The notes beneath the pieces are model-generated. The model ran no database searches and was not told the DNA's origin. It saw nothing but the letters and a program-made list of their open reading frames with translations. DNA of 64,000 nt from a virus: the IMG/VR virus record IMGVR_UViG_3300010885_052266, positions 36,880-100,879 of that record; one strand, given 5' to 3'. The first letter of the stretch is position 1; every line of letters begins with the position of its first letter. Below, piece by piece: positions 1-15,412 of the stretch. A program made the translations under genes and the position numbers.

Positions 1-2
1 TC

Positions 3-587
3 GCGTCCGACCGGGACGTCTTTGTCTTTCTGTGCGACGACACGCACCCCATTGAAATTGGCAAACTCGACAACGGCGATCCCGACCTTATTTTTCGCGG
101 TTTCTACTGTTGGAACAGCGAAGTCGGGACCCGCTCGCTCGGTATCGCGACCTTCTGGTTGCGGGGCGTTTGCCAGAATCGCAACCTTTGGGGAGTCGAG
201 GACTTCGACACCTTGCGGATCGTGCACACCAAGTACGGCAACGATCGCTTCGTTCGCGAGGCGGCGCCGGCGCTTGAGCGTTATGCCACCAGCGAGCCCA
301 CCAAGCTCCTGGCCGGCATCAATGCAGCGAAGAACGCCAAGGTGGCGAAGGATGATGAGGAGCGCACCAAGTTCCTCACATCCGACGCACTCGGCTTTTC
401 CTTCAAGCGTGCGCAGCAGATCATCGAGACCTGCGAGCGCGAGGACGGACGCAAACCCGAGACAGCGTGGGACATGGTCAACGGCATTACCGCCGTTGCT
501 CGGACCATTCCGCAACAGGACCTGCGCCTGGATGTCGAGAAAGTCGCATCCAAGCTGATGGACCGGGCCGCGCGCAACGCGGCTTGA
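3..587 (+). CDS. DUF932-family protein, 5' truncated by window edge
   Basis: Frame open from base 3: ASDRDVFVFLCDDTHPIEIG...FRGFYCWNSEVGTRSLGIATFWLRGVCQNRNLWG, typical DUF932 motifs. Confidence 0.75.
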   Translation, partial: ASDRDVFVFLCDDTHPIEIGKLDNGDPDLIFRGFYCWNSEVGTRSLGIATFWLRGVCQNRNLWGVEDFDTLRIVHTKYGNDRFVREAAPALERYATSEPTKLLAGINAAKNAKVAKDDEERTKFLTSDALGFSFKRAQQIIETCEREDGRKPETAWDMVNGITAVARTIPQQDLRLDVEKVASKLMDRAARNAA

Positions 588-590
588 CCA

Positions 591-637
591 CCTGAAACCC
601 GCTCCGGCGGGTCGCTGGCATTCACGCCAGCATGAGG
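591..637 (+). repeat. Structured intergenic element, copy 1
   Basis: CCT GAAAC CCGC-TCCG-GCGG GTC GCTGGC-attcac-GCCAGC ATGAGG; next ATG at 645. Confidence 0.9.
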
Positions 638-644
638 AGACAAT

Positions 645-971
645 ATGCCCCACACTCCAGGCCCTTGGGCCGCTGGCGCATCTCTGATCACGAATTGGTC
701 CCAGGAGCGGCAGGACAAGCGAAACACCGAGGGTAGAACGCGCACCGTTGAGATCGCGCTTGTCCGTGAACCCTTACGCATCGCGCGTAACGGTCCCGAC
801 ACCATGGGCGAATACGAGGCCAACGTGCGGCTGATCACGGCCGCGCCTGACCTGCTGGAAGCACTGCGTGCCATCGTGCATCAGGTGCTGCAGGGCTCAG
901 TCCTGGAACGTGATGCTTGCCTACGACAGGCCCAAGAAGCCATCGCCAAGGCGACCATGAAACCCGGCTGA
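645..971 (+). CDS. Phage hypothetical protein (HTPGPW...ANxRLIxAAPDLLEAL type)
   Basis: RBS GAGGAG; motif common in small phage proteins. Confidence 0.75.
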   Translation: MPHTPGPWAAGASLITNWSQERQDKRNTEGRTRTVEIALVREPLRIARNGPDTMGEYEANVRLITAAPDLLEALRAIVHQVLQGSVLERDACLRQAQEAIAKATMKPG

Positions 972-1008
972 GCCGGGTCGCGCCGCCACACCGCGGCGCC
1001 TGAAAAGG
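956..1008 (+). repeat. Structured intergenic element, copy 2 (variant)
   Basis: CAT GAAAC CCGGC-TGA-GCCGG GTC GCGCCGC-cacacc-GCGGCGC CTGAAAAGG; both stems changed but still paired. Confidence 0.85.
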
Positions 1009-1020
1009 ATACTCACATAA

Positions 1021-2028
1021 ATGCAAGAAACTGCTCTGGCTCATCACGAGCCGGATCTTCCATCGTACGACCACATCATTGTGGCGTTCAGTGGCGGCAA
1101 GGACTCACTCGCGTGCGTCCTGCATTTGCTTGAGCTGGGCGTGCCGGCGGACAAGATCGAGCTGCACCACCATCTCGTCGATGGTGGTGGCGGAACGGCT
1201 CTTATGGACTGGCCGGTGACCGAAGCCTACTGCGCGGCAGTCGCGCAGGCGCTTGAGATGCCATTGCTCCGCTCCTGGCGGTGCGGTGGCTTCTTGCGCG
1301 AGATGACCCGAGACAACCAGCCGACCGCCTCGATCATGTTCGAGCGGCTCGATGGCACACTCACAGAGGTCGGCGGCAATGGGCCAAAGGGGACGCGCCT
1401 GCGCTTCCCCCAGGTCTCTGCCGACCTCTCGGTGCGCTACTGTAGCGCCTATCTGAAAATCGACGTGTGCGACGCGTTGATCCGCAACGATGACCGCTTT
1501 CGCGGCACACGCACGCTGGTGGTAACCGGCGAGCGTGCCGAGGAAAGCTCGGCCCGGGCCCGCTATGCGGTGTTCGAGCCGCATCGGGCGGATCTGCGCG
1601 ACGGACGGCGCTACCAGCGCCACGTCGACGCCTGGCGGCCCGTCCACGGCTGGTCACGCGAACAGGTATGGGCGATCATCCAGCGCCACGGGATCATCCC
1701 GCACCCGGCCTATTACATCGGCTGGGGCAGGCTGTCCTGCTTGTGCTGCATCTTCGGAAGCCCGGACCAATGGGCTTCCATCAAAGCGATCGCGCCCTGG
1801 GAATTCGACCGGATCGCGCAATACGAGAGGCAATTCGGCACCACCATCCATCGGACCGAATCGGTGGTTGCGAGGGCCGCAAAGGGGAAACCCTACGCGG
1901 CAATCGAGGCCAACCCCGATCATGTCTCGACATGCCTGGATATGGCATTCTATGCCCCGGTTCGCTGCAACCCCGCTGACTGGCTCATGCCGGCCGGCGC
2001 GTTTGGCGAGAACACGGGGCCAACCTGA
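1021..2028 (+). CDS. PAPS-reductase-like (PP-loop adenine nucleotide alpha-hydrolase) family protein
   Basis: AFSGGKDS PP-loop, RYCSAYLK, GERAEESSAR, RPVHGWS, HPAY..GWGRLSCLCC. Confidence 0.85.
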   Translation: MQETALAHHEPDLPSYDHIIVAFSGGKDSLACVLHLLELGVPADKIELHHHLVDGGGGTALMDWPVTEAYCAAVAQALEMPLLRSWRCGGFLREMTRDNQPTASIMFERLDGTLTEVGGNGPKGTRLRFPQVSADLSVRYCSAYLKIDVCDALIRNDDRFRGTRTLVVTGERAEESSARARYAVFEPHRADLRDGRRYQRHVDAWRPVHGWSREQVWAIIQRHGIIPHPAYYIGWGRLSCLCCIFGSPDQWASIKAIAPWEFDRIAQYERQFGTTIHRTESVVARAAKGKPYAAIEANPDHVSTCLDMAFYAPVRCNPADWLMPAGAFGENTGPT

Positions 2029-2072
2029 AACCCGCTCCGGCGGGTCGCCTCGCAATCACGCGAGGCAAGAGG
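2024..2072 (+). repeat. Structured intergenic element, copy 3
   Basis: CCTGAAACCCGCTCCGGCGGGTC GCCTCGC-aatcac-GCGAGGC AAGAGG; its TGA is the upstream stop (2026-2028). Confidence 0.9.
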
Positions 2073-2080
2073 AATTCAAA

Positions 2081-2425
2081 ATGGAAAAAGAAGAACCATG
2101 GCGCCGGGAAATTGTCCGGCGTGACGTCGTATTCGCGTCACTCGATGAGCTGGGGAATATCCTCTCGAAAAAACAGGCCAAGGCGTTCGTCTGGCCGGAC
2201 GAGGGAGAATTCCGCGGCGGTGACTGGCACTTCAACGATGAGCACCGCGGCCAATACGAGCCTCTGATCATCGATCCGCAGACGGCGAAAGCGATGACCG
2301 TAATCCATGACTCCCTGAGCCCCAGGAACCAGGCGACGTTTGCCGGACATGTAAGCAAGGGGCGGGGCCACTTCGGGGTGTGCTTTGAATTCTCCTGGAA
2401 GCATGTTCGCTTTGGCTCGACCTGA
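2081..2425 (+). CDS. Phage hypothetical protein
   Basis: ATG 2081 after GAGGA; MEKEEPWRR...IDPQTAKAMTVIHDSLSPRNQATF; stop lies in the next repeat. Confidence 0.7.
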   Translation: MEKEEPWRREIVRRDVVFASLDELGNILSKKQAKAFVWPDEGEFRGGDWHFNDEHRGQYEPLIIDPQTAKAMTVIHDSLSPRNQATFAGHVSKGRGHFGVCFEFSWKHVRFGST

Positions 2426-2469
2426 AACCCGCTCCGGCGGGTCACCTAGCGCCGATGCGAGGCATGAGG
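2421..2469 (+). repeat. Structured intergenic element, copy 4
   Basis: CCTGAAACCCGCTCCGGCGGGTC ACCTAGC-gccgat-GCGAGGC ATGAGG (imperfect second stem). Confidence 0.88.
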
Positions 2470-2480
2470 AAACTGAAACT

Positions 2481-2717
2481 ATGACAGACTACCTTATCAC
2501 CGAACTCGACGACGGTTTCCACGTCCGCGTCCTTGCTGCTGCCAGGACCACAGAAACCGCCTATAAGAAGTTCGCCAAAGAGAGCCGGGCCCGATGGGCT
2601 GCAGGCCAGACTTTTTTTAGCCCTGTACGTCGCGTCCGCGGTGGCCGCTCGCAAGTTCACGGCATGCTGGACCGCGACGTAGCGGCGCTGCCCACTTGGG
2701 GCGATGACGCACCCTGA
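2481..2717 (+). CDS. Small hypothetical protein
   Basis: ATG 2481 after GAGGA; bounded by repeats. Confidence 0.65.
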   Translation: MTDYLITELDDGFHVRVLAAARTTETAYKKFAKESRARWAAGQTFFSPVRRVRGGRSQVHGMLDRDVAALPTWGDDAP

Positions 2718-2759
2718 AACCCGCTCCGGCGGGTCGCCCGCATCTCCGCGGGCCAGAGG
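2713..2759 (+). repeat. Structured intergenic element, copy 5
   Basis: CCTGAAACCCGCTCCGGCGGGTC GCCCGC-atctcc-GCGGGC CAGAGG; next ATG at 2768. Confidence 0.9.
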
Positions 2760-2767
2760 AAACCACG

Positions 2768-3091
2768 ATGGCCCGAAACGCCATGATCGGCTCCGGAGAG
2801 CGGTTGCGCAGCAAAACGCGGCGCTGGCTCTCTCCTTTTCCGACCATCAACACCCACACCGAGCGTTCCACCCGCGCCACCCTTGCGCGTGTGGCGACGT
2901 GGCTGGTCGAGGAGGCGCGTGCCGAGGCGCGAGCGACCCGAGATGATTGGGCCGCGACCCTGCTCAGGGGATGCAATCCCCGCAACCTGTCGCAGTCCGA
3001 CATGGACACGCTGAACCACTTTCTGTTCGGCGATGTCGACGGGCCCGGCCCTGAGCATCGCGAAGCGCCGCACCCCTCTCTATTCGAATAG
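2768..3091 (+). CDS. Hypothetical protein, last gene of the array
   Basis: RBS GAGGA; followed by a terminator. Confidence 0.65.
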   Translation: MARNAMIGSGERLRSKTRRWLSPFPTINTHTERSTRATLARVATWLVEEARAEARATRDDWAATLLRGCNPRNLSQSDMDTLNHFLFGDVDGPGPEHREAPHPSLFE

Positions 3092-3093
3092 CC

Positions 3094-3128
3094 TAGCCCC
3101 ACCGGGTCCGCCCGGTGGGGCTATTTTC
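3094..3128 (+). terminator. Rho-independent terminator
   Basis: TAGCCCCACCGGG-tccg-CCCGGTGGGGCTA followed by TTTT. Confidence 0.85.
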
Positions 3129-3241
3129 GTTTCAACATTTCGGTTGACTCGACACACTACAGCGTGGGATGGTGGCGGCGTTCGAGAGACACGGAGCGAA
3201 TTCATGATGCTGCTGAGCAGCTGCCCGCGGGGATACCCGCG

Positions 3242-3562
3242 ATGACGGACCGGCGAGACTGGAAGTCCAGGTCGGTAGCCCAGCCGGAACCCGGCTATTT
3301 CCGATACAGGATGGTCCGCAATGGGCCGTTTGTCCCTGCCCGCATTTGCCACGAGGATGGCCTCTGGTGGGCCATGATCGAAGGCAGGGCCAAAGAGAAG
3401 GCATCTGACCCGGCCGCTGCGCCGAAGGTCTACCCGATCTGGCACGGCGCCGAGATGATCTCCGAGCGGCAATACTGGGCCGATATGGCGAAACGCGGCC
3501 TGCCGAATGCCTTGCCCGCCAACAAGCCCATCGACCTGACCAACCTTCCCCCTTTGTTCTGA
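3242..3562 (+). CDS. Phage hypothetical protein
   Basis: PEPGYFRYRMVRNGPFVPARI...PIDLTNLPPLF; start uncertain (ORF open from 3164). Confidence 0.65.
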   Translation: MTDRRDWKSRSVAQPEPGYFRYRMVRNGPFVPARICHEDGLWWAMIEGRAKEKASDPAAAPKVYPIWHGAEMISERQYWADMAKRGLPNALPANKPIDLTNLPPLF

Positions 3563-3573
3563 AAGAAGAGGCA

Positions 3574-4584
3574 ATGAACGATTTCAATGTTCCGACGCGC
3601 GGCGTTGGCGACAATAGCGGCGATGTGCCTGAACTGTTTACACTCGATCCGGAGCTGATCCGGGAGCAGCTCGGCCAGGACTATGGGTCCATGGTGCGCA
3701 AGCGGGACGAGCTGCTCGCGGGAGTCGCTCGGCTCTGCCTCACGTACACGACAAAGGCGCGGTTCCCCACGCTCGAAGCGATTACCAACGCCACCGACAT
3801 TCAGGTCGGGGCAGTGTGCGTCGTCGACCGATCGGGGGAGTTGCCCCCATGTGCCGTGCTCATCGAACGGCGCAAGGAAGCAACCGGACGCCAGACCTCA
3901 ATCCTGACCGCCGCTGAGACGATCCGCCACCTGCTGAACACGATCGCGATCCCAGACGAAGAGGTTGCCGCCCGGGTCGTGTCGTTCGTCAGGCAGATCA
4001 AGGATCACCTCAAGCCGGTCGAAGCTGCTCGGGTCAAAGAGAAGGGCCCCTATGACGGAGCCGCCTCGGCCGTGCAGAGCTTCTTCAAGGCAACCATCGC
4101 CGACCCGCTCGGCGCGGCAGCCTCCGGGATCGAGACCGGTCCGCTCAAGACCTATGCCGCGGAGAAGGCGGCGGCCGAGAGGCGCCGGCGGGAGGCCGAG
4201 GCCGAGGAGGCCCGCCAGAAGGCCGAGCAGGCCAAGCAGGAGGCCGAGGCCGCGCGCAAGGCAGCCGAGGCGGTCATGACGGAGCGTGCCCTCGATCACG
4301 CCATCGATACGACGGACCGCGCCATTGTCGTGACCGAGGCGGCCGAACGCCTGGAGCGCCAGGCCGCGGCTCCGGTGCGGGATATGGCGCGCACACGCGG
4401 CTCGGCAGGCGGCGTGCTGTCGGCCCGATCGGTCTGGAAGCACCGGGTCGTGGATCCCGACAAGGTTCCGGATGATTTCTGGGTCATCGACCACGACAAG
4501 CTGGCCGCCCTGGCGCGGCAGGATAAGGCCGGCGCGTCCGTGCCCGGTGTCGAATTTTTCGACGATGTGACTGTGAGGGTGTGA
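3574..4584 (+). CDS. Coiled-coil protein of the recombination module (Gp157/Gam-like C-terminus)
   Basis: A/E/K-rich coil then WKHRVVDPDKVP...IDHDKL...VPGVEFF; directly upstream of ERF. Confidence 0.6.
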   Translation: MNDFNVPTRGVGDNSGDVPELFTLDPELIREQLGQDYGSMVRKRDELLAGVARLCLTYTTKARFPTLEAITNATDIQVGAVCVVDRSGELPPCAVLIERRKEATGRQTSILTAAETIRHLLNTIAIPDEEVAARVVSFVRQIKDHLKPVEAARVKEKGPYDGAASAVQSFFKATIADPLGAAASGIETGPLKTYAAEKAAAERRRREAEAEEARQKAEQAKQEAEAARKAAEAVMTERALDHAIDTTDRAIVVTEAAERLERQAAAPVRDMARTRGSAGGVLSARSVWKHRVVDPDKVPDDFWVIDHDKLAALARQDKAGASVPGVEFFDDVTVRV

Positions 4585-6149
4585 TGGATCAGCGCGTCGA
4601 AATTTCTCTCCCGAGCGATCCCGGCCCGGCCGAGCACATGACCGCGGAGGCGATGCTCAACCCGGCATTGTTCATGTCGCCCCGCATCGACCAATTATCC
4701 AAGGCGCTGAGCGCAGCGCAAGGGGAGATGCAAAATCCGAAAAAGAATGAGACCGCGACTGTTACGTCACGACGGACGGGCACAACCTTTCAGTATTCCT
4801 ATGCCACGTTGTCGGCAATACTTGACACGGTGCGCGCTCCTCTGAAGAACAACGGTTTATTCCTCTCGCAGATTGTGACGGGAAACGACCTGACCGTCAT
4901 GTTGTGCCATGAGTCTGGCCAATGGATGCGGGCCGGGATCCGCCTCCAACCCGCAGATTCCGGACCACAGGCGTTTGCCTCTGAGCTGACCGCATACCGC
5001 CGACATTTGATTCAAGGGCTGCTATCGATCAGCGCCGAGGATGACGATGACAGCAACATCGCCGAAGGCAACAATGTCACGCCAGGTCCCCGAGACCAGA
5101 GGCGCTGGGATCCCGAAGCGCCGGCCCAACCGGCCGAGGCGGACCCGTTGCTGGCCATGGCCCTTCGCACCCACAACGTCCGCGAGGGTGGTAACCTGCT
5201 GCGCCTCTGGATGGTCCAGGGCCGCGAGCGCGTCGAAAAGATGCGGCGGCAGGAGGACCAGCAGGAGCAGTTCTGCGCGGTCATCGACGCCGTTGCTAAG
5301 GCACTCCAACGAAGTTTAGGCACGGTGCTGGCCAGCGCCTGGAAGGCGATCATGGTCGCCACCACACGGGAGCAAGAGCGTGCTGTCGTGGAAAAGATGG
5401 ACGGCGAGTGGGCTGATACCCTGGCCGCGTTCCGGGCCGCCGAACCAGCGGTACACCAAGACCTGATGCGTCACGTGACCGCGCGGCGCGAGATCATCGC
5501 GGCCAATGTGAAGGCCGCCCAGGCCGAGGCCGATCGGATCGCGAAGGAGGATGCCGCGAAGGGGCCGCCGTTCGAGTATCGCGTGGCGGATTTCGTGGGT
5601 GATTTTTCGGACGAAATCTACACCAGTGCCGAGACCTGGGCGCGGGCATACGAGGCCATGTATCGCGCCACGCCGCCGGAGCACCTGCCGCTCCTCGCCG
5701 AGCACAATGCCGAAGCGTTGATGGATGCGGTGAAGCACTTCGGGGCAGAGGTTCTCCTGACCGACCTGCACCGGGAGGAAGCACCACGAGACGATGCGGG
5801 CGCGGCCCGTCCGATGGTCACGGCGACACGGATAGCCGACGGCTCTGTGACTACCCCGACGTTCACCACCAAGACACCCCCGGCACCGCCACTGTCCGAA
5901 GAGGAAGCCCTGGTAACGCTGCCGAAAGGGCGCGGCGAGGGCTACGACCTGGCCCTGTATCTGAAAGCGATCGGCGCATCCTTGGACGGGACGGTCCGCA
6001 CCATCGCCGACATGGACGTCTGGGAGCGGGTGAATTCGCCGATCTACCTGTCGGACAAGCTCCAAGGCGCGGATAGCACACGCATGCGGGTGTTCCGCGC
6101 CGTGGCGGCCCGCAAGCGTGGCCTCGGCATCCAGATCGACGCCGAGTGA
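4581..6149 (+). CDS. ERF-family single-strand annealing protein with long C-terminal extension
   Basis: LSKALSAAQGEM.NPKKN...YSYATLSAILDTVR..L...HESGQW...PQAFASELTAYRR...EDDDDSN. Confidence 0.8.
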   Translation: MMDQRVEISLPSDPGPAEHMTAEAMLNPALFMSPRIDQLSKALSAAQGEMQNPKKNETATVTSRRTGTTFQYSYATLSAILDTVRAPLKNNGLFLSQIVTGNDLTVMLCHESGQWMRAGIRLQPADSGPQAFASELTAYRRHLIQGLLSISAEDDDDSNIAEGNNVTPGPRDQRRWDPEAPAQPAEADPLLAMALRTHNVREGGNLLRLWMVQGRERVEKMRRQEDQQEQFCAVIDAVAKALQRSLGTVLASAWKAIMVATTREQERAVVEKMDGEWADTLAAFRAAEPAVHQDLMRHVTARREIIAANVKAAQAEADRIAKEDAAKGPPFEYRVADFVGDFSDEIYTSAETWARAYEAMYRATPPEHLPLLAEHNAEALMDAVKHFGAEVLLTDLHREEAPRDDAGAARPMVTATRIADGSVTTPTFTTKTPPAPPLSEEEALVTLPKGRGEGYDLALYLKAIGASLDGTVRTIADMDVWERVNSPIYLSDKLQGADSTRMRVFRAVAARKRGLGIQIDAE

Positions 6150-6164
6150 GACCGGAGCACGGCT

Positions 6165-6536
6165 ATGTCGGACGATTGGCGCGACGCCGACGGCAACCTC
6201 GATCCCCAGCTGATCGGCCACGATATCGAGACGCTGGGGCACGCCTGGGCCGGGCTGAGCCACGCGGCATCCCTCCTGGACAAGACCCAGACCGCGGTCT
6301 TTGCCCAGATGGTGTTGGCCCACATGGAGGAGCACTCCGGGGTGAGCCGGGCCACGGCAGAGCTGAAGGTGCGTGGCTCCGATGACTGGATGAACCACAT
6401 CTACGCGGCTCTCGATGCCCGTCGGAGAGCGAATGTGGCCCTGGTGAACTTCGAGGCAGGCAAGGCCCGGTTCGAGGCGATGCGGACGCAGGAAGCCAGC
6501 CGGCGTGTGGAAATGACAACTCTCGGGAGGCGGTGA
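6165..6536 (+). CDS. Hypothetical helical protein
   Basis: RBS GGAG; overlaps the ssb start. Confidence 0.65.
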   Translation: MSDDWRDADGNLDPQLIGHDIETLGHAWAGLSHAASLLDKTQTAVFAQMVLAHMEEHSGVSRATAELKVRGSDDWMNHIYAALDARRRANVALVNFEAGKARFEAMRTQEASRRVEMTTLGRR

Positions 6537-7078
6537 TGGCAGCGTCAATGAACAAGGTCCTACTGATCGGAAATCTGGGGAAAGACCCGGAAATCCGGAA
6601 CACCCAGGACGGCAAGAAGACCGCCAGCATGACCCTGGCCACGAGCGAGTCCTGGACCGACCGCGCCTCCGGTGAGCGCAAGGAGCGGACCGAGTGGCAC
6701 CGCGTCGTCGTGTTCAACGAGATGCTCGCCACGATCGCCGAGAAGTGGGCCAAGAAGGGTAGCAAGGTGATGGTCGAAGGCACCTTGCAGACCCGGAAAT
6801 GGACCGGCCAGGACGGCGTGGAGCGATACTCCACCGAGGTCGTGCTCGGCCCCTACAAGGCATCTCTGATTATCCTGCATAGCAGCCACCGGGACGATGG
6901 CCACGCCGGCGACGCCGATACGGGCGGGTCGGGACGTCGCGGCACCAGCGGGGCCGGCGGCGCGGCCGATCCTGCCCAGCGCGATGCAAGCGCACATTGG
7001 AGCCCAGGAGCGCCCACTCCCACCCAGCGTGCGGACGGCAAACGCCACTTCGGCGATAACGACGAAATACCGTTCTAA
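6533..7078 (+). CDS. ssb: Single-stranded DNA-binding protein
   Basis: MNKVLLIGNLGKDPEIR...TEWHRVV...EGTLQTRKW; C-terminal DEIPF. Confidence 0.95.
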   Translation: MMAASMNKVLLIGNLGKDPEIRNTQDGKKTASMTLATSESWTDRASGERKERTEWHRVVVFNEMLATIAEKWAKKGSKVMVEGTLQTRKWTGQDGVERYSTEVVLGPYKASLIILHSSHRDDGHAGDADTGGSGRRGTSGAGGAADPAQRDASAHWSPGAPTPTQRADGKRHFGDNDEIPF

Positions 7079-7137
7079 CCCGCAGGATTGGAATAATTCC
7101 AGAATAGCGTTTTTGCGCTTGCCAAACACACCGTAAT

Positions 7138-7172
7138 GTGTGACCTCATGTTTATAGCCAACCAGGTCACAC
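7138..7172. promoter_or_regulatory. Inverted repeat, possible operator
   Basis: GTGTGACCT-N17-AGGTCACAC in an AT-richer intergenic region before RBS GAAGGGGG. Confidence 0.4.
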
Positions 7173-7186
7173 CGAAGGGGGACACG

Positions 7187-7570
7187 ATGCCGCCGGCACC
7201 ACCACAACGAGATGACTCTAGCGGCTTTGCAAGCTTCGTGGATATGCTGGAGGCCCTGGAGGGCGGACAGCTCGTGCGCGACGCGACCGACGCGATGCAC
7301 ACGCTGTCTCATACGCTTCGCGACCACATGATAATGGGGCGAAAGGCCAAGGGCACGCTCAAGATTACGATCAATCTGAGCGCCGATCGCGGCCTGATCG
7401 AGGCGATCGCCGACGTTACCGTCAAGGAGCCGGCGCTGCCTCGCACGCGGTCGGCCTTCTACGCGACCGGATCAGGCCGCCTGACACGCGAGGACCCAAC
7501 CCAGCCGAACCTGCCGCTGCAGGGCGTGGACGATCATCCCAGCGTTCGGCGCCTTCGGGGGGTCGATTAA
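7187..7570 (+). CDS. Hypothetical protein, usual upstream partner of DUF2303
   Basis: KAKGTLKITINL...FYATGSGRLTREDPTQPNLPL; ATG 7187. Confidence 0.7.
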   Translation: MPPAPPQRDDSSGFASFVDMLEALEGGQLVRDATDAMHTLSHTLRDHMIMGRKAKGTLKITINLSADRGLIEAIADVTVKEPALPRTRSAFYATGSGRLTREDPTQPNLPLQGVDDHPSVRRLRGVD

Positions 7571-7621
7571 AGCGGCGCCAGCCAACCCACCACCAGCGCA
7601 ACAACCACAAGGAGCGCTATC

Positions 7622-8677
7622 ATGATCGATGCCGACTTCCTCACGAAACTGGACGAACTGACCAGCGCCAATACGGACATCCGTATGGTGAATGTCACGT
7701 CGCCCCCCGGACCGGAAGCTTTTATTGGCCGTGTCTACGGGATGGATGTGCCGCAGGGACGCAAATTTGAGGATTTGACAGCCAAGCTGCTGCAGACCCT
7801 GCCGAACCCGCTGTCCCGCACGGGAACGCAGACGCTGTTGGACCTCGACTCGTTCGCGGCCTATGTGAACCGCTACAAATTGCCCAACTCGGCGTTGTAC
7901 GCCGAGCAGGGCACCAACGGAAACGCGCCGAAGCTTGTCGCGATCTTCGATGAGCACGATGCTGTGAACGTGCCTGCGCCGCTCGACAAAGCCACGATCT
8001 TGGAGATGAGGGCCGCGCATGACGCCTTGAACGACGATGCCGCAGAAGACGAACAGGAACCGTTCGTCCTGCCGACGGTTTACACGTCGGCCGACACTCC
8101 CCGCCCGCAGTGGCGCCGGTTCCGCGCCGATTACCATTTCCCTGCGCACGACGCCTTCAAAGCCTGGTCAACTCAAAACAAGCAGCCCTTGTCGCAGTCT
8201 ACTCTCGCGGAGTGGATCGAGGATCACATCACCGATGTCATGGACATCAGCACGGCCGATCAGATCAAGGCGGTCAAAACGCGAGACCTGATCGGCCAGC
8301 TCAATCTGAGCTTGGGGAATCGTCTCCAGCTGCTGACCGCGGCGCGCGGGATGGCGGTGAAGGTGACCGAAGCGGTGCGGAGTGCCGTCAACACGAACGA
8401 CGGCAGCATTTCGGTGGCCTACGAGCAGACCCACGAGGCTGCCAGCAGGGACCCAGACCTGAAGGTTCCGACCGCGTTCGTGATCGCGCTGCCGGTGTTC
8501 GAAGGGGGCGCGGTGTTCCAGCTTCTGACCCGCCTGAAGTACCGGAAAGAAGGGCAGACGTTGAAGTGGTCCTTCGACGTGTACAACTTGAAGCGCGCCG
8601 TCGACGTCGCTTTCACATCCGCGTGCGACGACGTGGTCGCCGCGACGGGTCTGCCGCTCTACTACGCCAAAGTCTGA
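7622..8677 (+). CDS. DUF2303 (YfdQ-like) family protein
   Basis: LDSFAAYVNRYK...AIFDEH...W...AEWIEDH...PTAFVIALPVFEGG...RLKYR. Confidence 0.8.
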   Translation: MIDADFLTKLDELTSANTDIRMVNVTSPPGPEAFIGRVYGMDVPQGRKFEDLTAKLLQTLPNPLSRTGTQTLLDLDSFAAYVNRYKLPNSALYAEQGTNGNAPKLVAIFDEHDAVNVPAPLDKATILEMRAAHDALNDDAAEDEQEPFVLPTVYTSADTPRPQWRRFRADYHFPAHDAFKAWSTQNKQPLSQSTLAEWIEDHITDVMDISTADQIKAVKTRDLIGQLNLSLGNRLQLLTAARGMAVKVTEAVRSAVNTNDGSISVAYEQTHEAASRDPDLKVPTAFVIALPVFEGGAVFQLLTRLKYRKEGQTLKWSFDVYNLKRAVDVAFTSACDDVVAATGLPLYYAKV

Positions 8678-8680
8678 AGA

Positions 8681-8715
8681 ACAGGCCGGGCGCTTCGCGC
8701 GTCCGGCCTGTCTTC
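8681..8715 (+). terminator. Hairpin, probable terminator
   Basis: ACAGGCCGGGCGC...GCGTCCGGCCTGT; weak T-tract. Confidence 0.5.
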
Positions 8716-8731
8716 GTCTGGGAGGAAAACA

Positions 8732-8989
8732 ATGGAAAGAATACCAATGGTTCCGCCGTGGCGGGCCTATGTCTGGTCGACACCAGGAAGTACTGGCCTT
8801 GCGACAGTTATCGCCGAGATCAAGGCCGGTCCTATCACGGTCCAGTATGAAGTCAGGTGGGCAGACGGATGCACGGACTGCTTTGATCCGAGTGAAATCC
8901 AGCCCGCACCCAACGTATTTCCCTGGGGGCCAGTCGCCAGACTCCCCCTCTTTGAATCAGGAGAAGATCGTGTCACTGCCGCTTCATGA
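8732..8989 (+). CDS. Small hypothetical protein
   Basis: RBS GGAGG; YEVRWADG. Confidence 0.6.
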   Translation: MERIPMVPPWRAYVWSTPGSTGLATVIAEIKAGPITVQYEVRWADGCTDCFDPSEIQPAPNVFPWGPVARLPLFESGEDRVTAAS

Positions 8990-9320
8990 CGTTTTGCGCC
9001 CATTCGTGGAAGAGAATGACTTACTGTCAGTGCGGGCACTGACAATCCTGAGTTGGATCGTGGCGAACAGCGACGAACCCGAGAAGCGCACGGTCCGGGC
9101 CATCCACGGCGAATTCGGCATCCCGAAGCCGTCTGTGACCCGGGTGATGGATGCGCTGTTCCCCGTCTATGCAACGCGCGTGCCTGATCCGTCGGATCGA
9201 CGCTCGGTGCTGTGCCAGGCCACGCCCGTAGGCAGGCAGCTGATGGGCGCCCCTCCCGGTTCCGACGAGAGGGAAAGGACCCGCCCGAAGAGCCGCTCGG
9301 GGCAGGGGGCCGCGGTATGA
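8970..9320 (+). CDS. MarR-like winged-helix regulator
   Basis: GTG start after AGGAG; TVRAIHGEFGIPKPSVTRVMDAL...RVPDPSDRRSV...TPVG. Confidence 0.8.
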   Translation: MSLPLHDVLRPFVEENDLLSVRALTILSWIVANSDEPEKRTVRAIHGEFGIPKPSVTRVMDALFPVYATRVPDPSDRRSVLCQATPVGRQLMGAPPGSDERERTRPKSRSGQGAAV

Positions 9321-9976
9321 GGCTCCTGATCGCCAAGGAGCTTGCCGCCGAGCGGGAAGCCGCCCTCAAGCGTGCCCCGACCATGAGGCTCCTGATCGAC
9401 ACCGCCGGCACCGGAATTCAGAACTGGAAGCTGGACCGGCACCACCCCGATCAACCCTACCTGACCAGGCTGACTCTGCTCAGCGACGATCCGAGCGTCA
9501 CGCTGCCGATCTGCTCGCTGACGATGGCGCCGGTCGCCATCGATGAAGAGGCCCGGGCGTTCTACGGGATCAGCGACGAGGACCTCGCCGAGCGGGGCGA
9601 CCATGCGGGGGAAGTCTTTGCCGGCTTCCTCCACCAACTGGCGAAAGCTGACTCCGTCGCGGGATACTCGGTCAATTCCCACAAGCGCCTGCTCGACCGC
9701 ACCGCGCGTCACCTGGGCCTGCCCGATATCCCGTGGCCGCACAGCATCTGCCTGATGCAGCACGCCGCGCCGATCGTGCAGGTCCGCCGGGAGCGCGGGC
9801 GCTGGGTCTGGCCGAAGATGGAAGTTGCCTACCGGCACTTCGCCGGTACCAACCTGCCGCGCCCGTCTGACCCGCTCCAGGCGGGGATCGAGCTGATCAA
9901 GGCGGCTGGCGTGATCAATGCCGGGATCGAGGCGCACGGAACCGGCGCTCCGCCGGCGGGAGGCGACGGTGGATAG
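9317..9976 (+). CDS. DnaQ/DEDDh 3'-5' exonuclease-like protein with degenerate active site
   Basis: LLIDTAGTG...QPYL...FYGISDE...ICLMQ...WPKMEVAYRHF; ancestral start probably 9383. Confidence 0.65.
   Translation: MRLLIAKELAAEREAALKRAPTMRLLIDTAGTGIQNWKLDRHHPDQPYLTRLTLLSDDPSVTLPICSLTMAPVAIDEEARAFYGISDEDLAERGDHAGEVFAGFLHQLAKADSVAGYSVNSHKRLLDRTARHLGLPDIPWPHSICLMQHAAPIVQVRRERGRWVWPKMEVAYRHFAGTNLPRPSDPLQAGIELIKAAGVINAGIEAHGTGAPPAGGDGG
9333..9385 (+). repeat. 53-bp exact direct repeat; second copy at 10311-10363
   Basis: ccaaggagcttgccgccgagcgggaagccgccctcaagcgtgccccgaccatg at both sites. Confidence 0.92.
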
Positions 9977-10265
9977 TGCCACAACGGCTACCGCGCTCGA
10001 TCGCCTTACGCCCGAGCAAATGGCGCGCGTCGAGGAAGCCCACGCTTTGGCCACCGTTGTCCTGGAACTTCTGAAGCCACTCACCAGGGCCGATCCGAGA
10101 TCTCTGTTGGCGGTTTTGACGGTCGTGCTCGCCAACGTCGCGACATGGGTTCCGAACGCCACACCGGAGACCGACAAAGAGATGATGGACATCCTCGTGG
10201 CCAATGTCCATGCGACGTTGGCGAACGCTCGGCTCGAAGTAGCGCCACCGGCGGGGAACGCGTGA
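9969..10265 (+). CDS. Hypothetical protein
   Basis: GTG start after GGAGG, overlapping the upstream gene. Confidence 0.55.
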   Translation: MDSATTATALDRLTPEQMARVEEAHALATVVLELLKPLTRADPRSLLAVLTVVLANVATWVPNATPETDKEMMDILVANVHATLANARLEVAPPAGNA

Positions 10266-10468
10266 TGGCTGAGCGGGTAGCTGATGACTTCGCCCACATC
10301 GCGGCGCGGACCAAGGAGCTTGCCGCCGAGCGGGAAGCCGCCCTCAAGCGTGCCCCGACCATGGGCGACACGTGCCGGCATTGCTCGGTCGGTTCCCTGA
10401 CTTATCGGTCCGGAAAGCTGGTCTGCGATCGGTGCAGCCTCGACCCGGATGGAGGCCGGCATGGCTGA
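10265..10468 (+). CDS. Small zinc-ribbon protein
   Basis: CRHC...CDRC; TGATG coupling. Confidence 0.6.
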   Translation: MAERVADDFAHIAARTKELAAEREAALKRAPTMGDTCRHCSVGSLTYRSGKLVCDRCSLDPDGGRHG

Positions 10469-10580
10469 CGGCAGCAAGATCGAATGGACCAACGCGACCT
10501 GGAACCCCGTCACGGGATGCACCATCGATGCGGCCCATGAGCGGGTCGCGGCCCGACGGGGCCGGCGGGGGATGCCATGA
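10461..10580 (+). pseudogene. Truncated Gp37Gp68/DUF5131 remnant
   Basis: MADGSKIEWTNATWNPVTGCT, then unrelated sequence and stop after 39 codons. Confidence 0.75.
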
Positions 10581-10671
10581 CTTTCAGTGGTGACGCACAA
10601 GCCGACCTCTGCCGACTACTCGGAAACGGCTGCTGGCCTCGCGTGATCCTGACCACGCCTTTCGTGCTCGT

Positions 10672-11628
10672 ATGGGCGGTTCTCGCCGGGATCCGATTGG
10701 CAGGCAGGTGCGCGGGTTCGCTCTACGGCATGACGCGAGACGTCCAATGATACCGCCAGGCGCTGAAACACTCTTGCCGAACGCGCTGCTGATCGTGGCT
10801 GCGATCGATGCGGGACAACTCACTGGCTCACATTATAGCCAAATGAGCGACGAAATCGGAGGCGCGATCCACAAGAACGCGGCGTGGGTCCGACGTCACG
10901 GCAAGCCGATCGACTCGGAGCTGCGCAATTGCGCAGCTCCGCAATGGGCCAATCTGAGCCCTCGCAGCTACTGCTCTCTGCGGCTAGATGGCATCATGCT
11001 GGCTCGCCTGCTCCGTTCGGCTGAGCCCAACGAGCAACCTCTGCAGGGTTGCAGGTGGTGTGGAACCAGCCGCGGGCCGGTAGGCGATATCTATGGGTGT
11101 CGCCAACTATACTCGTGTGGCTCGGTTCAGCAGTGGTGTCCGGACCAGGTCCCCGGCCTGCCGAAGCCTGAAATCCCACCAAGGCTGCGCTCGGCTCAGC
11201 ACCAAGGCGTTTGGTTCCGAGCGTTTCCTTGTTCCAAGCTGCAACGGTCATTCGATCGGCCCAACGTCACCAGCGACGGCGTTGAACCGATTCCCGGCAT
11301 GCTGGTCGACCTGAACAGGGGAAGCGGCGCCTATGGCCTCTACCAGACAGGGACCGTCCTTGCCTCAGCGTCCGGCACGGCGCTGGTCTCTTGGCCTGAC
11401 CTGCCCGCCGATATCGTCGAGACCAGCCAGCTCATCACGCCCGGCGCCAAGGATAACACCGGGCTGACCGACTACCAGGCCAAGGTCTGCGCCGCGATCC
11501 GAGACGGCCGATTGGTTCTGACCAACGAAGGCGGCGTGCAGGTCGGTCGGATCGATGGCGCCAAGATTTGCGCCGATGCCCTTGCCGTGATGCGGGAGCG
11601 GGGCTTCCTCGCCGGGCTTGAGTCATGA
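10672..11628 (+). CDS. Hypothetical protein with Cys motifs (start may be 10747)
   Basis: Long ORF; stop overlaps the next start. Confidence 0.55.
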   Translation: MGGSRRDPIGRQVRGFALRHDARRPMIPPGAETLLPNALLIVAAIDAGQLTGSHYSQMSDEIGGAIHKNAAWVRRHGKPIDSELRNCAAPQWANLSPRSYCSLRLDGIMLARLLRSAEPNEQPLQGCRWCGTSRGPVGDIYGCRQLYSCGSVQQWCPDQVPGLPKPEIPPRLRSAQHQGVWFRAFPCSKLQRSFDRPNVTSDGVEPIPGMLVDLNRGSGAYGLYQTGTVLASASGTALVSWPDLPADIVETSQLITPGAKDNTGLTDYQAKVCAAIRDGRLVLTNEGGVQVGRIDGAKICADALAVMRERGFLAGLES

Positions 11629-12053
11629 AGCCGACGAACGCTGGCCGCTCGCTCGGAAATGTTCTGCAACGCGAGGCGCGCTTCAGGGCGTCTGGCCAAT
11701 GGCCGGCCTGGCGCTGGCAGGACTTGCCCGACGGCGTCCCCGGTGCCTCGGGCTGGTCGGCCGATGTCAGGCGGGTCGCCGAGAACGGTGTGTTCGTTGT
11801 CCTCGTCCGGGACCTGGACGCCGGGCCGTTTGGCAAGCTCCAGCACGCCATGATCAGAACGACGTCGGCGACCGAGGTCACATGGCGCGAGAAGCAGCGG
11901 ATCAAGGACGAGCTGTTCGGCCGGGAGCGCACCGCGATCGAGGTGTTCCCACCGGTCAGCGAGCTGATCGACGAAGCCAACGCCTACCACCTCTGGGTGT
12001 TCCCGCCCGGCACGCTGCTGCCGTTCACCCTGGCGAGGCGGCCTGCACAGTGA
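11625..12053 (+). CDS. Conserved phage hypothetical protein
   Basis: WREKQRIKDELFGRERTAIEVFPP.SELIDEANAYHLW. Confidence 0.7.
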   Translation: MKPTNAGRSLGNVLQREARFRASGQWPAWRWQDLPDGVPGASGWSADVRRVAENGVFVVLVRDLDAGPFGKLQHAMIRTTSATEVTWREKQRIKDELFGRERTAIEVFPPVSELIDEANAYHLWVFPPGTLLPFTLARRPAQ

Positions 12054-12301
12054 CGGCGTGCGCTTCCCTGCTGTGCGATGCCTGTGCCCATCCCGGTCGG
12101 TGCTGCACGGGCTTTGAACTGAATGGCGGCTCGTTCGGCGCCGGCGAGACTGCACTGGAGATGCTGGTGCGCATGGCAACAATCACGACCGCCACGAACG
12201 CGGATGGCAACCCGGCCGTGGTGCTCGGCAAGCAGCCCCTGCCTCAACCCCTACGACCGCGATCGCTGCCACCGCGCGGTCCTGATGGAGCTTGCAAACC
12301 G

Positions 12302-13291
12302 ATGAGCGAAGATCCGAAGCCAATCTATCTGCCGAGTCGGCTCCACTTCGCCGATCTGCCGGGCACAGTCAGCCTCGACCCGGGGAACGTCAAATTCCTT
12401 TGGCTGGGACCGACCATACCGGTTCCGGCCGGACCATACAGGCGCCCTATCCTGGGAGACGAGCCACTCCCGACTCCCCTGGCGACTCCCCTGGCGCCGC
12501 AAGCGGAAGCAGGGACAGTGTCCCAACCGCCGGTCGCGTCCGGGTTGGTCACGGATGCTCCGTCGAGCCAAGGCGCGGTGGCGACATCGGCCGATCCGGC
12601 CTCGTCCAACCCAGTGCCCGACTTTCCCGTCGAGACGTCGCCGCCTGTCGCAACCCCGGTCCCGGCGCCACTGCCCGGTCTGGAAGCCGCGATCCGTGCC
12701 TGCGCCCCGCGCCTGACCGATGCGCAGATCGCGTCCTGGGTCGACGCGCTGACGGAGACTCTGCGGCGCAACCGCATCGACACGCCGCGCCGGATTGCCG
12801 CGTTTGTCGGCCAGTGCGCGCATGAAAGCGGCGGCTTCACGGTGATGCAGGAAAACCTGAACTACCGCGCCGAACGCCTGTATCAGGTCTGGCCGGCACG
12901 GTTTCCGAACCTTGCGGCGGCGAACGAGTGCGCGCGCAACCCGGAACGGTTGGCCAACCGTGTCTATGCAAACCGTATGGGCAACGGCGATGAGGCTTCA
13001 GGCGATGGCTGGCGCTTTCGCGGTCGTGGCCTGATCCAGTTGACCGGTCGATCCAACTACCAGCGCTTCGCCAACAGCCTGGGCTGCACCATCGAGGAAG
13101 CGGCCCAGCGCGCCGAAACGCCGCGGGGCGCCGGGGAAAGCGCGGCGTTCTTCTGGTCGGCCAACAGCCTGAATACCCTGGCCGATGCCTGGTCCATCGA
13201 CGCCATGACCCGCAAGATCAATGGCGGCACCGCGGGCGCGGCCGAACGCCGCCACCTGTGCGACGCCGCCCTCGCCGCCATCGGAGAATAG
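12302..13291 (+). CDS. Glycoside hydrolase family 19 endolysin with P/A/S-rich N-terminal region
   Basis: RIAAFVGQCAHESGGF, ENLNY, ANRVYANRMGNG, GDGWRFRGRGLIQLTGRSNY, TRKINGG. Confidence 0.9.
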   Translation: MSEDPKPIYLPSRLHFADLPGTVSLDPGNVKFLWLGPTIPVPAGPYRRPILGDEPLPTPLATPLAPQAEAGTVSQPPVASGLVTDAPSSQGAVATSADPASSNPVPDFPVETSPPVATPVPAPLPGLEAAIRACAPRLTDAQIASWVDALTETLRRNRIDTPRRIAAFVGQCAHESGGFTVMQENLNYRAERLYQVWPARFPNLAAANECARNPERLANRVYANRMGNGDEASGDGWRFRGRGLIQLTGRSNYQRFANSLGCTIEEAAQRAETPRGAGESAAFFWSANSLNTLADAWSIDAMTRKINGGTAGAAERRHLCDAALAAIGE

Positions 13292-13292
13292 A

Positions 13293-13946
13293 ATGTTTGC
13301 AGCATTACTGCCGCTTGTCCTGAGCCTGGCCCCGCAACTCGCGGGCATGATCTTCGGATCGAAAGGCGGAGAGGCCGCCGATCAGGTCCTTGGCATCGTC
13401 AAGACCGTGGTCGGCGTCGATCCAACAACATCGGAAGGCGCCGCCGCCGCGGTCGCCGCCATCCAGGGCAACCCCGATGCGGCGCGGGAGTTGCAGACGA
13501 GGCTCGGGGAACTGCATCTGCGCATGCTGACCGAGCAGAACCGGGAACAGGACCAACAGCGCGAGGACGCCCTGAAGGAGCTGCAAAGACGGTTGACCGA
13601 TGTGGGGTCCGCGCGGTCCCATACAATCGCCCTGGCCGGAACGAACAGTCCACTGGCGTATGGCAGCATGATCCTGTCGGGTTTCATCCTGATCGCCTTT
13701 TCGATCATGCTGTACGTGGTACTGACCAGCCAAATGCCGCAGGACAACGCCGCCTTGGCCAACGTCCTGCTGGGCACCTTGGCCGCCATGGCAACCCAGG
13801 TCGCCAATTACTGGTTGGGATCGAGTTCAGGCAGTGCGGCAAAGAACTCGGCATTGGCCGGGGCGCATAATGCGCTGGCCAACAGCGTGCCGGCCGATCT
13901 GGCGCGCTCGGTCGGCCCCAGCGAGCCGCCCGGTCGGTTCCAGTAA
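13293..13946 (+). CDS. Holin-like membrane protein
   Basis: Follows endolysin; N-terminal hydrophobic segment, coil, two TM helices, YWLGSSSGS motif. Confidence 0.7.
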   Translation: MFAALLPLVLSLAPQLAGMIFGSKGGEAADQVLGIVKTVVGVDPTTSEGAAAAVAAIQGNPDAARELQTRLGELHLRMLTEQNREQDQQREDALKELQRRLTDVGSARSHTIALAGTNSPLAYGSMILSGFILIAFSIMLYVVLTSQMPQDNAALANVLLGTLAAMATQVANYWLGSSSGSAAKNSALAGAHNALANSVPADLARSVGPSEPPGRFQ

Positions 13947-14176
13947 ACGTCGCGGGAAATTGCGCCCCGGTTCGCACCGGCTGAGTCCGATGCACGGCAG
14001 TCGGTTCGTCGTTTGGGAGAGATTTACTGGCGTCAGGCGACGCTCAAGCATTACCGCATCGGGGGACGGTGGCGGCTACCTAGCGACGGTGGCGGCAGCG
14101 AAGAAGCTGCACCAGATCGCGCCGCTTCAGTTGGTGCGGGCCCTCGGACCGGCGACGGGATGGTACCGGCCAGTGT

Positions 14177-14254
14177 GCGAGCTTCGCTGGCCACCCTTTG
14201 ATGAATCCCCACACGGCGAGCTTCGCTGGCCGCCTTTTGATGACCTCTTACACG
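14177..14254 (+). repeat. Imperfect tandem repeat, 39-bp period
   Basis: gcgagcttcgctggcc(a/g)cc(c/t)tttgatga...acacgg twice. Confidence 0.8.
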
Positions 14255-14270
14255 GGAAGGAACCCTGATA

Positions 14271-15368
14271 ATGGACGACGTATCAGACGATATGCGAGAG
14301 ATTTTCCAGGCGGCCGGGATGTCGGAAGACCAGGCCGATGATTTGCTAAAAGCCGCTGAGATGCTCGTGGGGGGGGATGGCCGATTGCTCGTGAAGCCAT
14401 GGCGGCTGACGCCAGAGGCGACACGGAAGGCACTTCTGGAAGAACAGGTGTCGACGGAGCTCGGCGGCGCGTGGGAAGATCAAGACGACACGGAAGAGGC
14501 CACACAGGCCGGCCTGGAAAGCGCGATTACTCTGCTCAGGCAGGGGCGACTCATCTGGCTGGACGAGGTGCCGCCGCTTGATGTGCTGGAGCGGGAATCG
14601 GGCCGCGGACAACAGATGTTTTTTGATGGCTTCATTCGCCATCCCTTTCAGGACGGCTATATCCTGGCGTTCAACAACAGCAGCTTTAACCGCGAAAACG
14701 CGGCAGGCATGAAGGAATTTGCAGAGGTATTCGAGAAGCTAGGCGTCACCGACGCCGCTAGCGGTCACGTCATGGTGATCGAGCCACGGGCCGCCGAAAA
14801 GGATGACCTCGGTCCGCCGAAAGTCGACGTATTCGCTTTTGCCGCGATGGAAGTACAGGGGGAGAAGTTACTCACGCCGTCCGTGGAATTCATATTTCAT
14901 GTGACGAAAGACGGTCTCAAGGCCGAAGACCCGGACGGCCTTGATGACGCCTTCCTCGAACCGCAGCAGCGTTTGGCTGTGAACCACCTGCGTCACCAAT
15001 GCTCGCACATGCTGTTCTATGGGTTGATGATCTTGAATACCGAGTTCGTGCCAATCGAGGCCGTGCCAGCCCCTGAGAAGCTCAACAAGCAACGGGTTAA
15101 AAGTGGAAAGGACCCACTGCCTGGCTTCACCAAAGTCCACACCGAAGACTACATCACGGCTCTGACCGGCAAACCCAAGGCGCGATCCGAGGATGCGCAG
15201 GGCGGAACGCACGCCTCCCCTGTCCCGCATCTGCGCCGCGGCCATCGTCGATGGCTGGACGCCGAGCATACCCGCTCGACATGGGTTAGGGATTCGCTCG
15301 TCAACGTCCGCAAGCAGGTGTTCGGCGACCGGACGCGGTCATTTTACGACGCCAGTAAGCTGCATTGA
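14271..15368 (+). CDS. Phage hypothetical protein with C-terminal SPxPHxRRGH motif
   Basis: PEKLNKQRVKSGK...GGTHASPVPHLRRGHRR. Confidence 0.7.
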   Translation: MDDVSDDMREIFQAAGMSEDQADDLLKAAEMLVGGDGRLLVKPWRLTPEATRKALLEEQVSTELGGAWEDQDDTEEATQAGLESAITLLRQGRLIWLDEVPPLDVLERESGRGQQMFFDGFIRHPFQDGYILAFNNSSFNRENAAGMKEFAEVFEKLGVTDAASGHVMVIEPRAAEKDDLGPPKVDVFAFAAMEVQGEKLLTPSVEFIFHVTKDGLKAEDPDGLDDAFLEPQQRLAVNHLRHQCSHMLFYGLMILNTEFVPIEAVPAPEKLNKQRVKSGKDPLPGFTKVHTEDYITALTGKPKARSEDAQGGTHASPVPHLRRGHRRWLDAEHTRSTWVRDSLVNVRKQVFGDRTRSFYDASKLH

Positions 15369-15379
15369 GTAGGACGGGA

Positions 15380-15412
15380 GGCGAGGCCGGCTCCACCTGA
15401 GCCGGCCTCGCC
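15380..15412. terminator. Hairpin between the convergent arms
   Basis: GGCGAGGCCGGCTC-cacct-GAGCCGGCCTCGCC. Confidence 0.6.

Follow-up and report, generated by a model that had tools for sequence, protein, structure and literature searches.

A degenerate, putatively hammerhead-derived RNA element at the gene junctions of a phage gene array

Introduction

What is the two-hairpin RNA element that recurs between the small genes of the phage recorded as IMGVR_UViG_3300010885_052266, and would it still cleave itself as a hammerhead ribozyme does? The stretch of DNA analyzed here, called the window, is the right-hand 64 kb (64,000 nucleotides, positions 36,880 to 100,879) of this 100,879-bp IMG/VR phage record, which has 64% G+C and a 123-bp terminal overlap. 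An earlier note on the window had described five copies of the element, each placed between two genes, and had proposed that it is related to the type II hammerhead.

It has been known since 2011 that hammerheads can form clusters between phage genes. Clustered type II hammerheads flank single genes in prophages and phages, and a role in processing long phage transcripts was proposed (Perreault et al. 2011, PMC3088659). In these ribozymes stem II may shrink to two base pairs and even to one, C3 pairs with G8, and U3-A8 is reportedly the only covariation tolerated (PMC3088659). The role of hammerheads in bacteria and phages was still described as unsettled in a 2019 review (PMC6765202).

Results

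Copies of the element and their placement

We built a covariance model (R1) from element copies and used it for the genome and its relatives. R1 matched all five copies of the earlier note on the + strand (Table 1). These five are real but were an undercount, as the note covered the tail of the array; the whole phage carries 31 strong and 2 weak copies, at genome 16348-39614 and all on the + strand. In the R1 scan of the whole genome, no copy was found on the other strand and none outside this region. A hairpin-aware script found 31 copies in the genome. The 20-mer core (GAAA, stem III with a UCCG loop, and UC) has four matches in the window, where 0.07 would be expected. With up to 2 mismatches allowed, the genome contains 18 matches, all forward, and the reversed control gave 0; the identical 20-mer is common to 14 copies.

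The details given in the earlier note agreed with the sequence. Four of the five window copies contain the 23-mer CCTGAAACCCGCTCCGGCGGGTC unchanged, the arms of hairpin B (stem I) pair, imperfectly in copy 4, and hairpin A (stem III) is rewritten in copy 2. The five heptamers at the CUGANGA position read as listed there, and TGA overlaps GAAAC in three copies, where open reading frames (ORFs) end at 2028, 2425 and 2717. For four of the five window copies, the minimum-energy fold from RNAfold was the two-hairpin form (z from -3.1 to -4.3).

In one ~15-kb unit, each of 29 consecutive small genes has a copy ahead of it. At most of these junctions the start of the element lies about 14 nt or less from the upstream stop codon, and in 11 of the 29 the UGA overlaps G12-A13, with which GAAA begins. 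Between the end of the element and the ATG are 5-10 nt, and the third strand of the element overlaps the Shine-Dalgarno (SD) sequence. In three copies (window copy 2, and those at genome 25730 and 28700) the upstream ORF enters the element and its UGA lies in the stem III loop; hairpin A of window copy 2 is rewritten for this reason.

The array is bracketed upstream by a strong terminator and a promoter-like site, and downstream by another strong terminator (Table 1). No terminator comparable to these was found inside the array. From the bracketing terminators and the promoter-like site, the array looks like one ~15-kb transcription unit. The element itself was also considered as an intrinsic terminator and as a promoter; both roles were rejected, as no U-run follows hairpin B and no sigma-70-like motif is present at the array copies.

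Four copies differ in their surroundings; their positions carry the label L009, which denotes genome coordinates. Two of them (L009:16348-16460 and L009:17230-17345) lack the third strand, and each is directly followed by a ~85-nt repeat that contains a promoter-like TTGATA-N17/18-TATCTA and a GGACCG/CGGTCC hairpin. This repeat occurs only after the copies at genome 16348 and 17230. The other two are duplicated weak copies (L009:16712-16793 and L009:17986-18067) with a canonical CUGAUGA, a 12-nt loop III and U17; stem II is still absent from them, and the SD lies ~40 nt further downstream.

Canonical and intermediate forms in other phages

The exact 20-mer was found in 29 stretches of 28 other IMG/VR contigs. 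In 22 of the 29 stretches a stem I hairpin and CUGANGA come after it, and 16 stretches also have a contiguous stem II of 2-7 bp, made with the bases immediately 5' of GAAA. By their predicted folds these stretches are textbook type II hammerheads, often in arrays, and several of the 20-mer contigs match the Rfam family RF02276 above threshold.

A search of viral contigs with the covariance model, as the earlier note had suggested, together with a gapped pattern, revealed variant arrays in other large viral contigs. One of them, G001 (IMGVR_UViG_3300012974_000540, 93 kb), carries 26 copies and encodes a major capsid protein 45% identical to that of the present phage. Another, G002 (95.5 kb), carries 15 copies, with a capsid protein 51% identical; two fragments close to G002 also bear the array variant. 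Given these capsid identities, the array is a feature of a phage clade.

G001 is intermediate in form. Its third strand reads HUGANGAG, with U4, G5, A6, G8 and A9 nearly invariant and N7 free (G, U, C or A). The G10.1-C11.1 pair is present in 25 of the 26 copies, with stem II otherwise limited to 1-2 bp in most. At position 3, 16 copies have A, 7 have U and 3 have C. A 5-bp stem II is found together with the U3-A8 covariant in one copy, and another copy has a stem II of 6 bp. The RF02276 gathering score of 37 is passed by two copies (42.7 and 41.4 bits), and eight more score 22-34 bits. G001 thus appears to obey the hammerhead rules still, with the exception of position 3.

The earlier proposal of a hammerhead relationship is borne out by the presence of the same GAAA-stem III-UC 20-mer within canonical type II hammerheads of other phages and by the intermediate forms in relatives. 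Judged by this homology, the element is hammerhead-derived and a degenerate relative of the type II hammerhead.

Some other IMG/VR contigs contain "half-hammerheads", in which the same 20-mer is followed by the next hairpin and an SD without CUGANGA (Table 1). Loss of the catalytic strand with retention of the hairpins seems to recur. Separately, other phage contigs with type II hammerheads contain a type III hammerhead (51.8 bits) and a Mu-gpT-DE RNA (57.6 bits), at L038:5388-5440 and L018:13482-13528. Phages with homologues of the DUF932 protein encoded in the array (52-54% identical) carry no elements.

Base pairing and state of the core

We analyzed pairing in 70 copies from three phages. 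In total, 90.4% of cells pair, compared with 76% after shuffling and 33-48% after sliding. Ten of the 12 pairs change on both sides, and none of 500 shuffles reached the observed values. The compensatory changes in both stems point to selection on pairing. Stem I occurs in 25 distinct sequences in the present phage.

The order GAAA, stem III, UH, stem I and third strand was seen in all copies, and both strands of stem II are missing. All 33 copies, with 8 different stem III sequences between them, keep GAAA and the A15.1-U16.1 pair. Of the 32 copies that were parsed, 24 have C at H17, 7 have U and 1 has A; none has G. The base before GAGGA is T in 16 of 21 array SDs, compared with 1 of 11 SDs of the GAGGA type in the rest of the genome. 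By this comparison U4 is conserved beyond the needs of the SD, and a hammerhead-specific constraint is visible on both predicted core strands.

The third strand is CUGANGA in 5 of 33 copies and AUGAGGA in 14, and HUGANGA accounts for 19; two of the five window copies belong to this group. U4, G5 or G8 is broken in 12 of 33 copies (in the window, CUGAAAA, AAGAGGA and CAGAGGA), and the strand is absent from 2. Pairing of 10.1 with 11.1 is possible in 12 of 29 copies by hand count, which is about chance. A stem II of at least 2 bp at the canonical offset was found in 1 of 31 copies, against 1.2 with permuted flanks. The absence of stem II and the broken core of 12 of the 33 copies, three of them among the five in the window, weaken the earlier suggestion that the element processes the mRNA into single-gene units.

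Several substitutes for stem II were considered and rejected. At offsets from 0 to 10, neither a cis stem II nor any other closing helix of the 5' flank with the third strand was commoner than with permuted flanks, and no covariation was seen. A CCU:AGG helix appears in the RNAfold output; it arises from constant, compositionally biased sequence and is possible only in YCU copies, about one-third of the total. The CCT:AGG pairing by which the earlier note proposed translational coupling holds in four of the five window copies; in the array as a whole it showed no copy-specific covariation. A pseudoknot between loop I and the 3' tail, the usual type II tertiary contact, was also rejected, as the best complementary run was equal for true and permuted pairs in the three phages. 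Loop I is pyrimidine-rich and alike in the three diverged phages (AUCCC and relatives).

We also compared the phage with the Rfam hammerhead families, another check that had been suggested. No match was found in the whole genome at the gathering score (RF02276: 37 bits) or at E<=10. A permissive threshold, applied to the window, to the three CUGAGGA copies and to the rest of the genome, gave no ribozyme family.

Exchange of single-gene cassettes between strains

Contigs of four metagenome runs with related strains were placed on the 16-kb array. On this array L159 15473-15502 corresponds to window 3097-3126, and L159 3496-3888 to genome 27996-28388. Contigs from three of the four runs join across exactly one gene, a fifth joint spans several cassettes (Table 1), other joints link distant elements, and one strain contig connects the last array element to the ~85-nt repeat (loose end L159 15118). 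For the skips of 526, 778, 807, 687 and 1374 nt, both ends lie inside elements. In total, 18 of 26 joint ends fall within elements, which make up 12% of the stretch (binomial p = 2.5e-11). The sequence shared at the joints is 0-41 nt, and the joint position within the element varies. This fits an exchange driven by homology and not a site-specific one, and an integron-like mechanism was rejected, since the joints lie at differing positions of the shared sequence.

As DNA, the repeated 20-50-nt units are homologous exchange sites that add, delete and reorder single-gene cassettes. The proposal that each gene is an exchangeable cassette is thus supported by related-strain contigs that drop exactly one gene. 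Turnover is also seen at a greater distance: only 4 of the 29 proteins encoded in the array have homologues in that of G001 or G002, and their order is partly different. An ERF-family single-strand annealing protein is encoded shortly past the array (Table 1) and could be the catalyst of short-homology exchange between elements.

Genes of the array and the phage

Most cassettes have no family in Pfam or PHROGs. Those with a family encode a DUF3085 protein, an N6-adenine methylase, a DUF932 protein and a PAPS-reductase-like protein. A Crn4b-like ring nuclease is the sole array gene common to the arrays of all three phages. Its profile, built from 40 relatives, matched the PDB entries of Crn4b (9r7b, E = 1.2e-13) and Crn4a (9sma, 4e-11). 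His18 is invariant and Arg111 nearly so; they correspond to H17 and R103, the catalytic residues of Crn4b. An AlphaFold model of the protein reached a predicted local distance difference test (pLDDT) score of 96. The gene product is likely an anti-type III CRISPR or anti-cyclic-oligoadenylate protein. With a ring nuclease among its cassettes, the array would behave as a swappable early or anti-defence island.

The phage is a tailed phage from freshwater metagenomes, with tail-protein, portal, MuF-like and endolysin families. Its capsid protein has its best GenBank match, at 40% identity, in two Brevundimonas phages, and no nucleotide match to its DNA was found among GenBank phages. No phage RNA polymerase family was detected in the 44 proteins scanned, with a 1691-aa ORF and most others unscanned. 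Genome 1-20,000 contains no ORF longer than 565 aa, and 19,500-25,300 contains none longer than 466 aa. The three largest scanned window ORFs have tail-type or lytic-transglycosylase domains. No RNase-like family was found among 31 genes scanned. The early region also contains a tRNA-Arg (CCG) at L009:18509-18594 (Rfam 37.4 bits; ARAGORN).

Table 1 Elements, genes, strain joints and half-hammerhead sites.
Feature	Position	Strand	Details
Copy 1	window 588-652	+	R1 63.8 bits; RNAfold z = -3.1; GAAA 594-597; stem III with UCCG loop up to U612; H17 = C613; predicted hammerhead cleavage site between 613 and 614; stem I GCUGGC/GCCAGC; third strand AUGAGGA, also the SD; ATG 645
Copy 2	window 953-1022	+	R1 32.5 bits; RNAfold z = -3.7; GAAA 959-962; stem III rewritten as CCCGGC/GCCGGG; UGA (969-971) of upstream ORF 645-971 in stem III loop; H17 = C979; stem I GCGCCGC/GCGGCGC; third strand CUGAAAA (G8 lost); SD shifted downstream (AAGGA); ATG 1021
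Copy 3	window 2021-2088	+	R1 67.1 bits; RNAfold z = -4.3; UGA (2026-2028) overlaps G12-A13; H17 = C2046; stem I GCCUCGC/GCGAGGC; third strand AAGAGGA (U4 lost); ATG 2081
Copy 4	window 2418-2485	+	R1 54.8 bits; RNAfold z = -2.2; UGA (2423-2425) overlaps G12-A13; H17 = C2443; stem I imperfect; third strand AUGAGGA; minimum-energy fold differs from two-hairpin form; ATG 2481
Copy 5, last of array	window 2710-2775	+	R1 72.8 bits (best match); RNAfold z = -3.2; UGA (2715-2717) overlaps G12-A13; H17 = C2735; stem I GCCCGC/GCGGGC; third strand CAGAGGA (U4 lost); ATG 2768
Last six of 29 single-gene cassettes	window 3-3091	+	ORFs, Pfam, PHROGs
DUF932, C-terminal part	window 3-587	+	
phrog_1273 gene	window 645-971	+	
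PAPS-reductase-like gene	window 1021-2028	+	
Three genes without family	window 2081-2425, 2481-2717, 2768-3091	+	
Intrinsic terminator closing the array unit	window 3097-3126	+	13-bp stem, then U run; L159 15473-15502
ERF-family single-strand annealing protein, 1.5 kb past array	window 4581-6149	+	Pfam PF04404, E = 5e-12
Crn4b-like ring nuclease, 130 aa	genome 27996-28388 (L159:3496-3888), outside window		profile search
Single-gene joint	L159 2113>2640		526 nt skipped
Single-gene joint	L159 6313>7092		778 nt skipped
Single-gene joint, two runs	L159 10901>11709		807 nt skipped
Single-gene joint, two runs	L159 14447>15135		687 nt skipped
Joint over several cassettes	L159 9867>11242		1374 nt skipped
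Half-hammerhead sites	L014:8043-8124, L019:322-388, L025:3823-3904, L028:5677-5743		
Half-hammerhead sites, continued	L032:8442-8508, L030:6450-6522, L031:2769-2843		

Discussion

The explanation that we favor, and to which we give about an even chance, is that the element descends from the type II hammerhead in a degenerate form specific to the lineage and serves as intercistronic punctuation of one long early operon. It would act within the polycistronic RNA, where two stable hairpins would separate neighboring cistrons. The hairpins would cap the 3' end of the upstream message and the 5' end of the downstream message, leave the SD free, and bring the stop codon and the next SD side by side. 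Judged from the consensus rules, most copies have probably lost classical self-cleavage after H17 or retain it weakly, and slow cleavage may persist in the 19 HUGANGA copies. Because the core departs from the rules of Perreault et al., most copies should cut poorly or not at all, and efficient self-cleavage is doubtful. Selection nevertheless maintains the two hairpins as well as the 5' core strand.

Three points weigh against this explanation. The strict conservation of GAAA, U16.1 and H17 and the extra conservation of U4 are what catalysis would demand, and a structural role would not obviously need them. The strict core of G001, combined with a stem II of 1-2 bp, suggests that the clade tolerates a very short stem II. 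Finally, the strain joints come from short-read contigs; two of them share 27-41 nt, so that mis-joins are possible, and the others share 0-8 nt.

A rather unlikely but serious alternative is that the copies are working self-cleaving ribozymes of a minimal class that lacks stem II and has A, U or C as its third core base. Cleavage after H17 would then yield single-gene mRNAs that end in a stem III hairpin with a 2',3'-cyclic phosphate and begin with a 5'-OH stem I hairpin. As the SD lies in the core, cleavage and product release would free it for the ribosome. G12-A14, A15.1-U16.1 and a non-G H17 are invariant despite the turnover of both stems, U4 is kept beyond the SD requirement, and HUGANGA is retained in 19 of 33 copies, all as expected of a working ribozyme. 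G001 adds a strict core with free N7 despite a 1-2-bp stem II and A3 in 16 of 26 copies; two G001 copies pass RF02276, and active hammerheads with a two- or even one-bp stem II have been described (Perreault et al. 2011, PMC3088659). However, A3 cannot pair with G8, and U3-A8 is the only covariation reported as tolerated (PMC3088659). U4, G5 or G8 is changed in 12 copies, and the third strand is absent from two. The 10.1-11.1 pair is not above chance and does not covary, no copy-specific pseudoknot between loop I and the tail would compensate for its loss, and no Rfam match was obtained even at E<=10. The most far-reaching form of this alternative, which we regard as slightly less likely again, is a new minimal hammerhead class that would cut itself without stem II and with A3, whose catalytic strand would be the SD and whose ribozyme units would also be the borders of anti-defence cassettes. 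If true, RNA cleavage and translation initiation of each early gene would be mechanically linked.

It is improbable that the GAAAC-hairpin-GUY module has replaced its lost catalytic core by serving as a recognition site for a protein, either an endoribonuclease of the phage or its host or a translational regulator. A dead core would leave the invariant GAAA, U16.1 and H17 in need of a non-catalytic explanation, and the pyrimidine-rich loop I is alike in three diverged phages. Against this, no candidate protein was found: the sole gene common to the three arrays is the Crn4-like ring nuclease, which has a known role of its own, and the 31 genes scanned include no RNase-like family.

That the repeats matter as DNA only, as recombination sites, phage RNA polymerase promoters or protein-binding sites with irrelevant RNA folds, is very improbable: the strain cassette deletions have their joints within the repeats, the 20-mer is identical in 14 copies and an ERF annealing protein gene lies next door, but both stems show compensatory changes, 33 of 33 copies lie on the sense strand at a fixed position relative to stop, SD and ATG, the varying joint positions indicate homology-driven rather than site-specific exchange, the array copies have no sigma-70-like motif, and no polymerase family was found in the 44 scanned proteins (the 1691-aa ORF and most others being unscanned).

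Compared with the described type II clusters (PMC3088659, RF02276), the element has the same order of GAAA, stem III, UH, stem I and core strand, and the same G12-A14, A15.1-U16.1 and H17. The stem III 20-mer is literally the same, and there is likewise one element per junction just before the ribosome-binding site. It differs in having no stem II, mostly A in place of C3, a broken U4, G5 or G8 in 12 of the 33 copies, and a core strand fused with the SD; in addition, the pseudoknot between loop I and the tail is unsupported and Rfam gives no match. The 33-copy array far exceeds any cluster found described in PMC3088659.

The PeSL cassettes of T4-type phages combine an early promoter with a terminator-like stem-loop, which makes each gene its own unit (Arbiol et al. 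2010, PMC2839356; Comeau et al. 2014, PMC4122927). As in the present array, short conserved intergenic repeats in hyperplastic regions border indels and replacements of single small accessory genes between close relatives. Unlike PeSL, the repeat of this phage is ribozyme-derived and lies inside what looks like one operon, without a sigma-70-like site at the array copies.

A close counterpart is the array of G001, which belongs to the same clade and shares the layout and a very short stem II, with a AUGAGGAG strand that doubles as the SD. Unlike the present phage, G001 keeps HUGANGAG with free N7, G10.1-C11.1 (25/26), the U3-A8 covariant and two Rfam passes. In the early genes of T7, intercistronic RNase III hairpins are cut to turn polycistronic mRNA into single-gene messages with protective end hairpins. 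The T7 sites differ from the element in that they depend on a host protein enzyme, are longer, irregular hairpins and have no sequence relation to it. RiboJ-type insulators are engineered and consist of an active type III hammerhead followed by a hairpin that exposes the ribosome-binding site, with the SD outside the core. They resemble the element in placing a hammerhead scaffold directly upstream of the SD, which makes expression independent of the upstream context.

What is new here is the most degenerate member of the series, without stem II or Rfam signal, together with a graded comparison showing the origin of the degenerate element and direct population evidence for elements as cassette borders. 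The clade presents a natural series from canonical type II hammerheads, through forms whose stem II has 1-2 bp and whose position 3 is relaxed, to a form without stem II whose core strand is the ribosome-binding site. Every form in the series is found at the same type of gene junction. Should the degenerate copies still cut, the minimal requirements now accepted for the hammerhead would be too strict; if they do not, a ribozyme scaffold would have been kept for a non-catalytic job. The array resembles the ribozyme-plus-hairpin insulators that were devised independently in synthetic biology. As borders of single-gene cassettes, such ribozyme-derived repeats would link RNA punctuation with the turnover of accessory genes.

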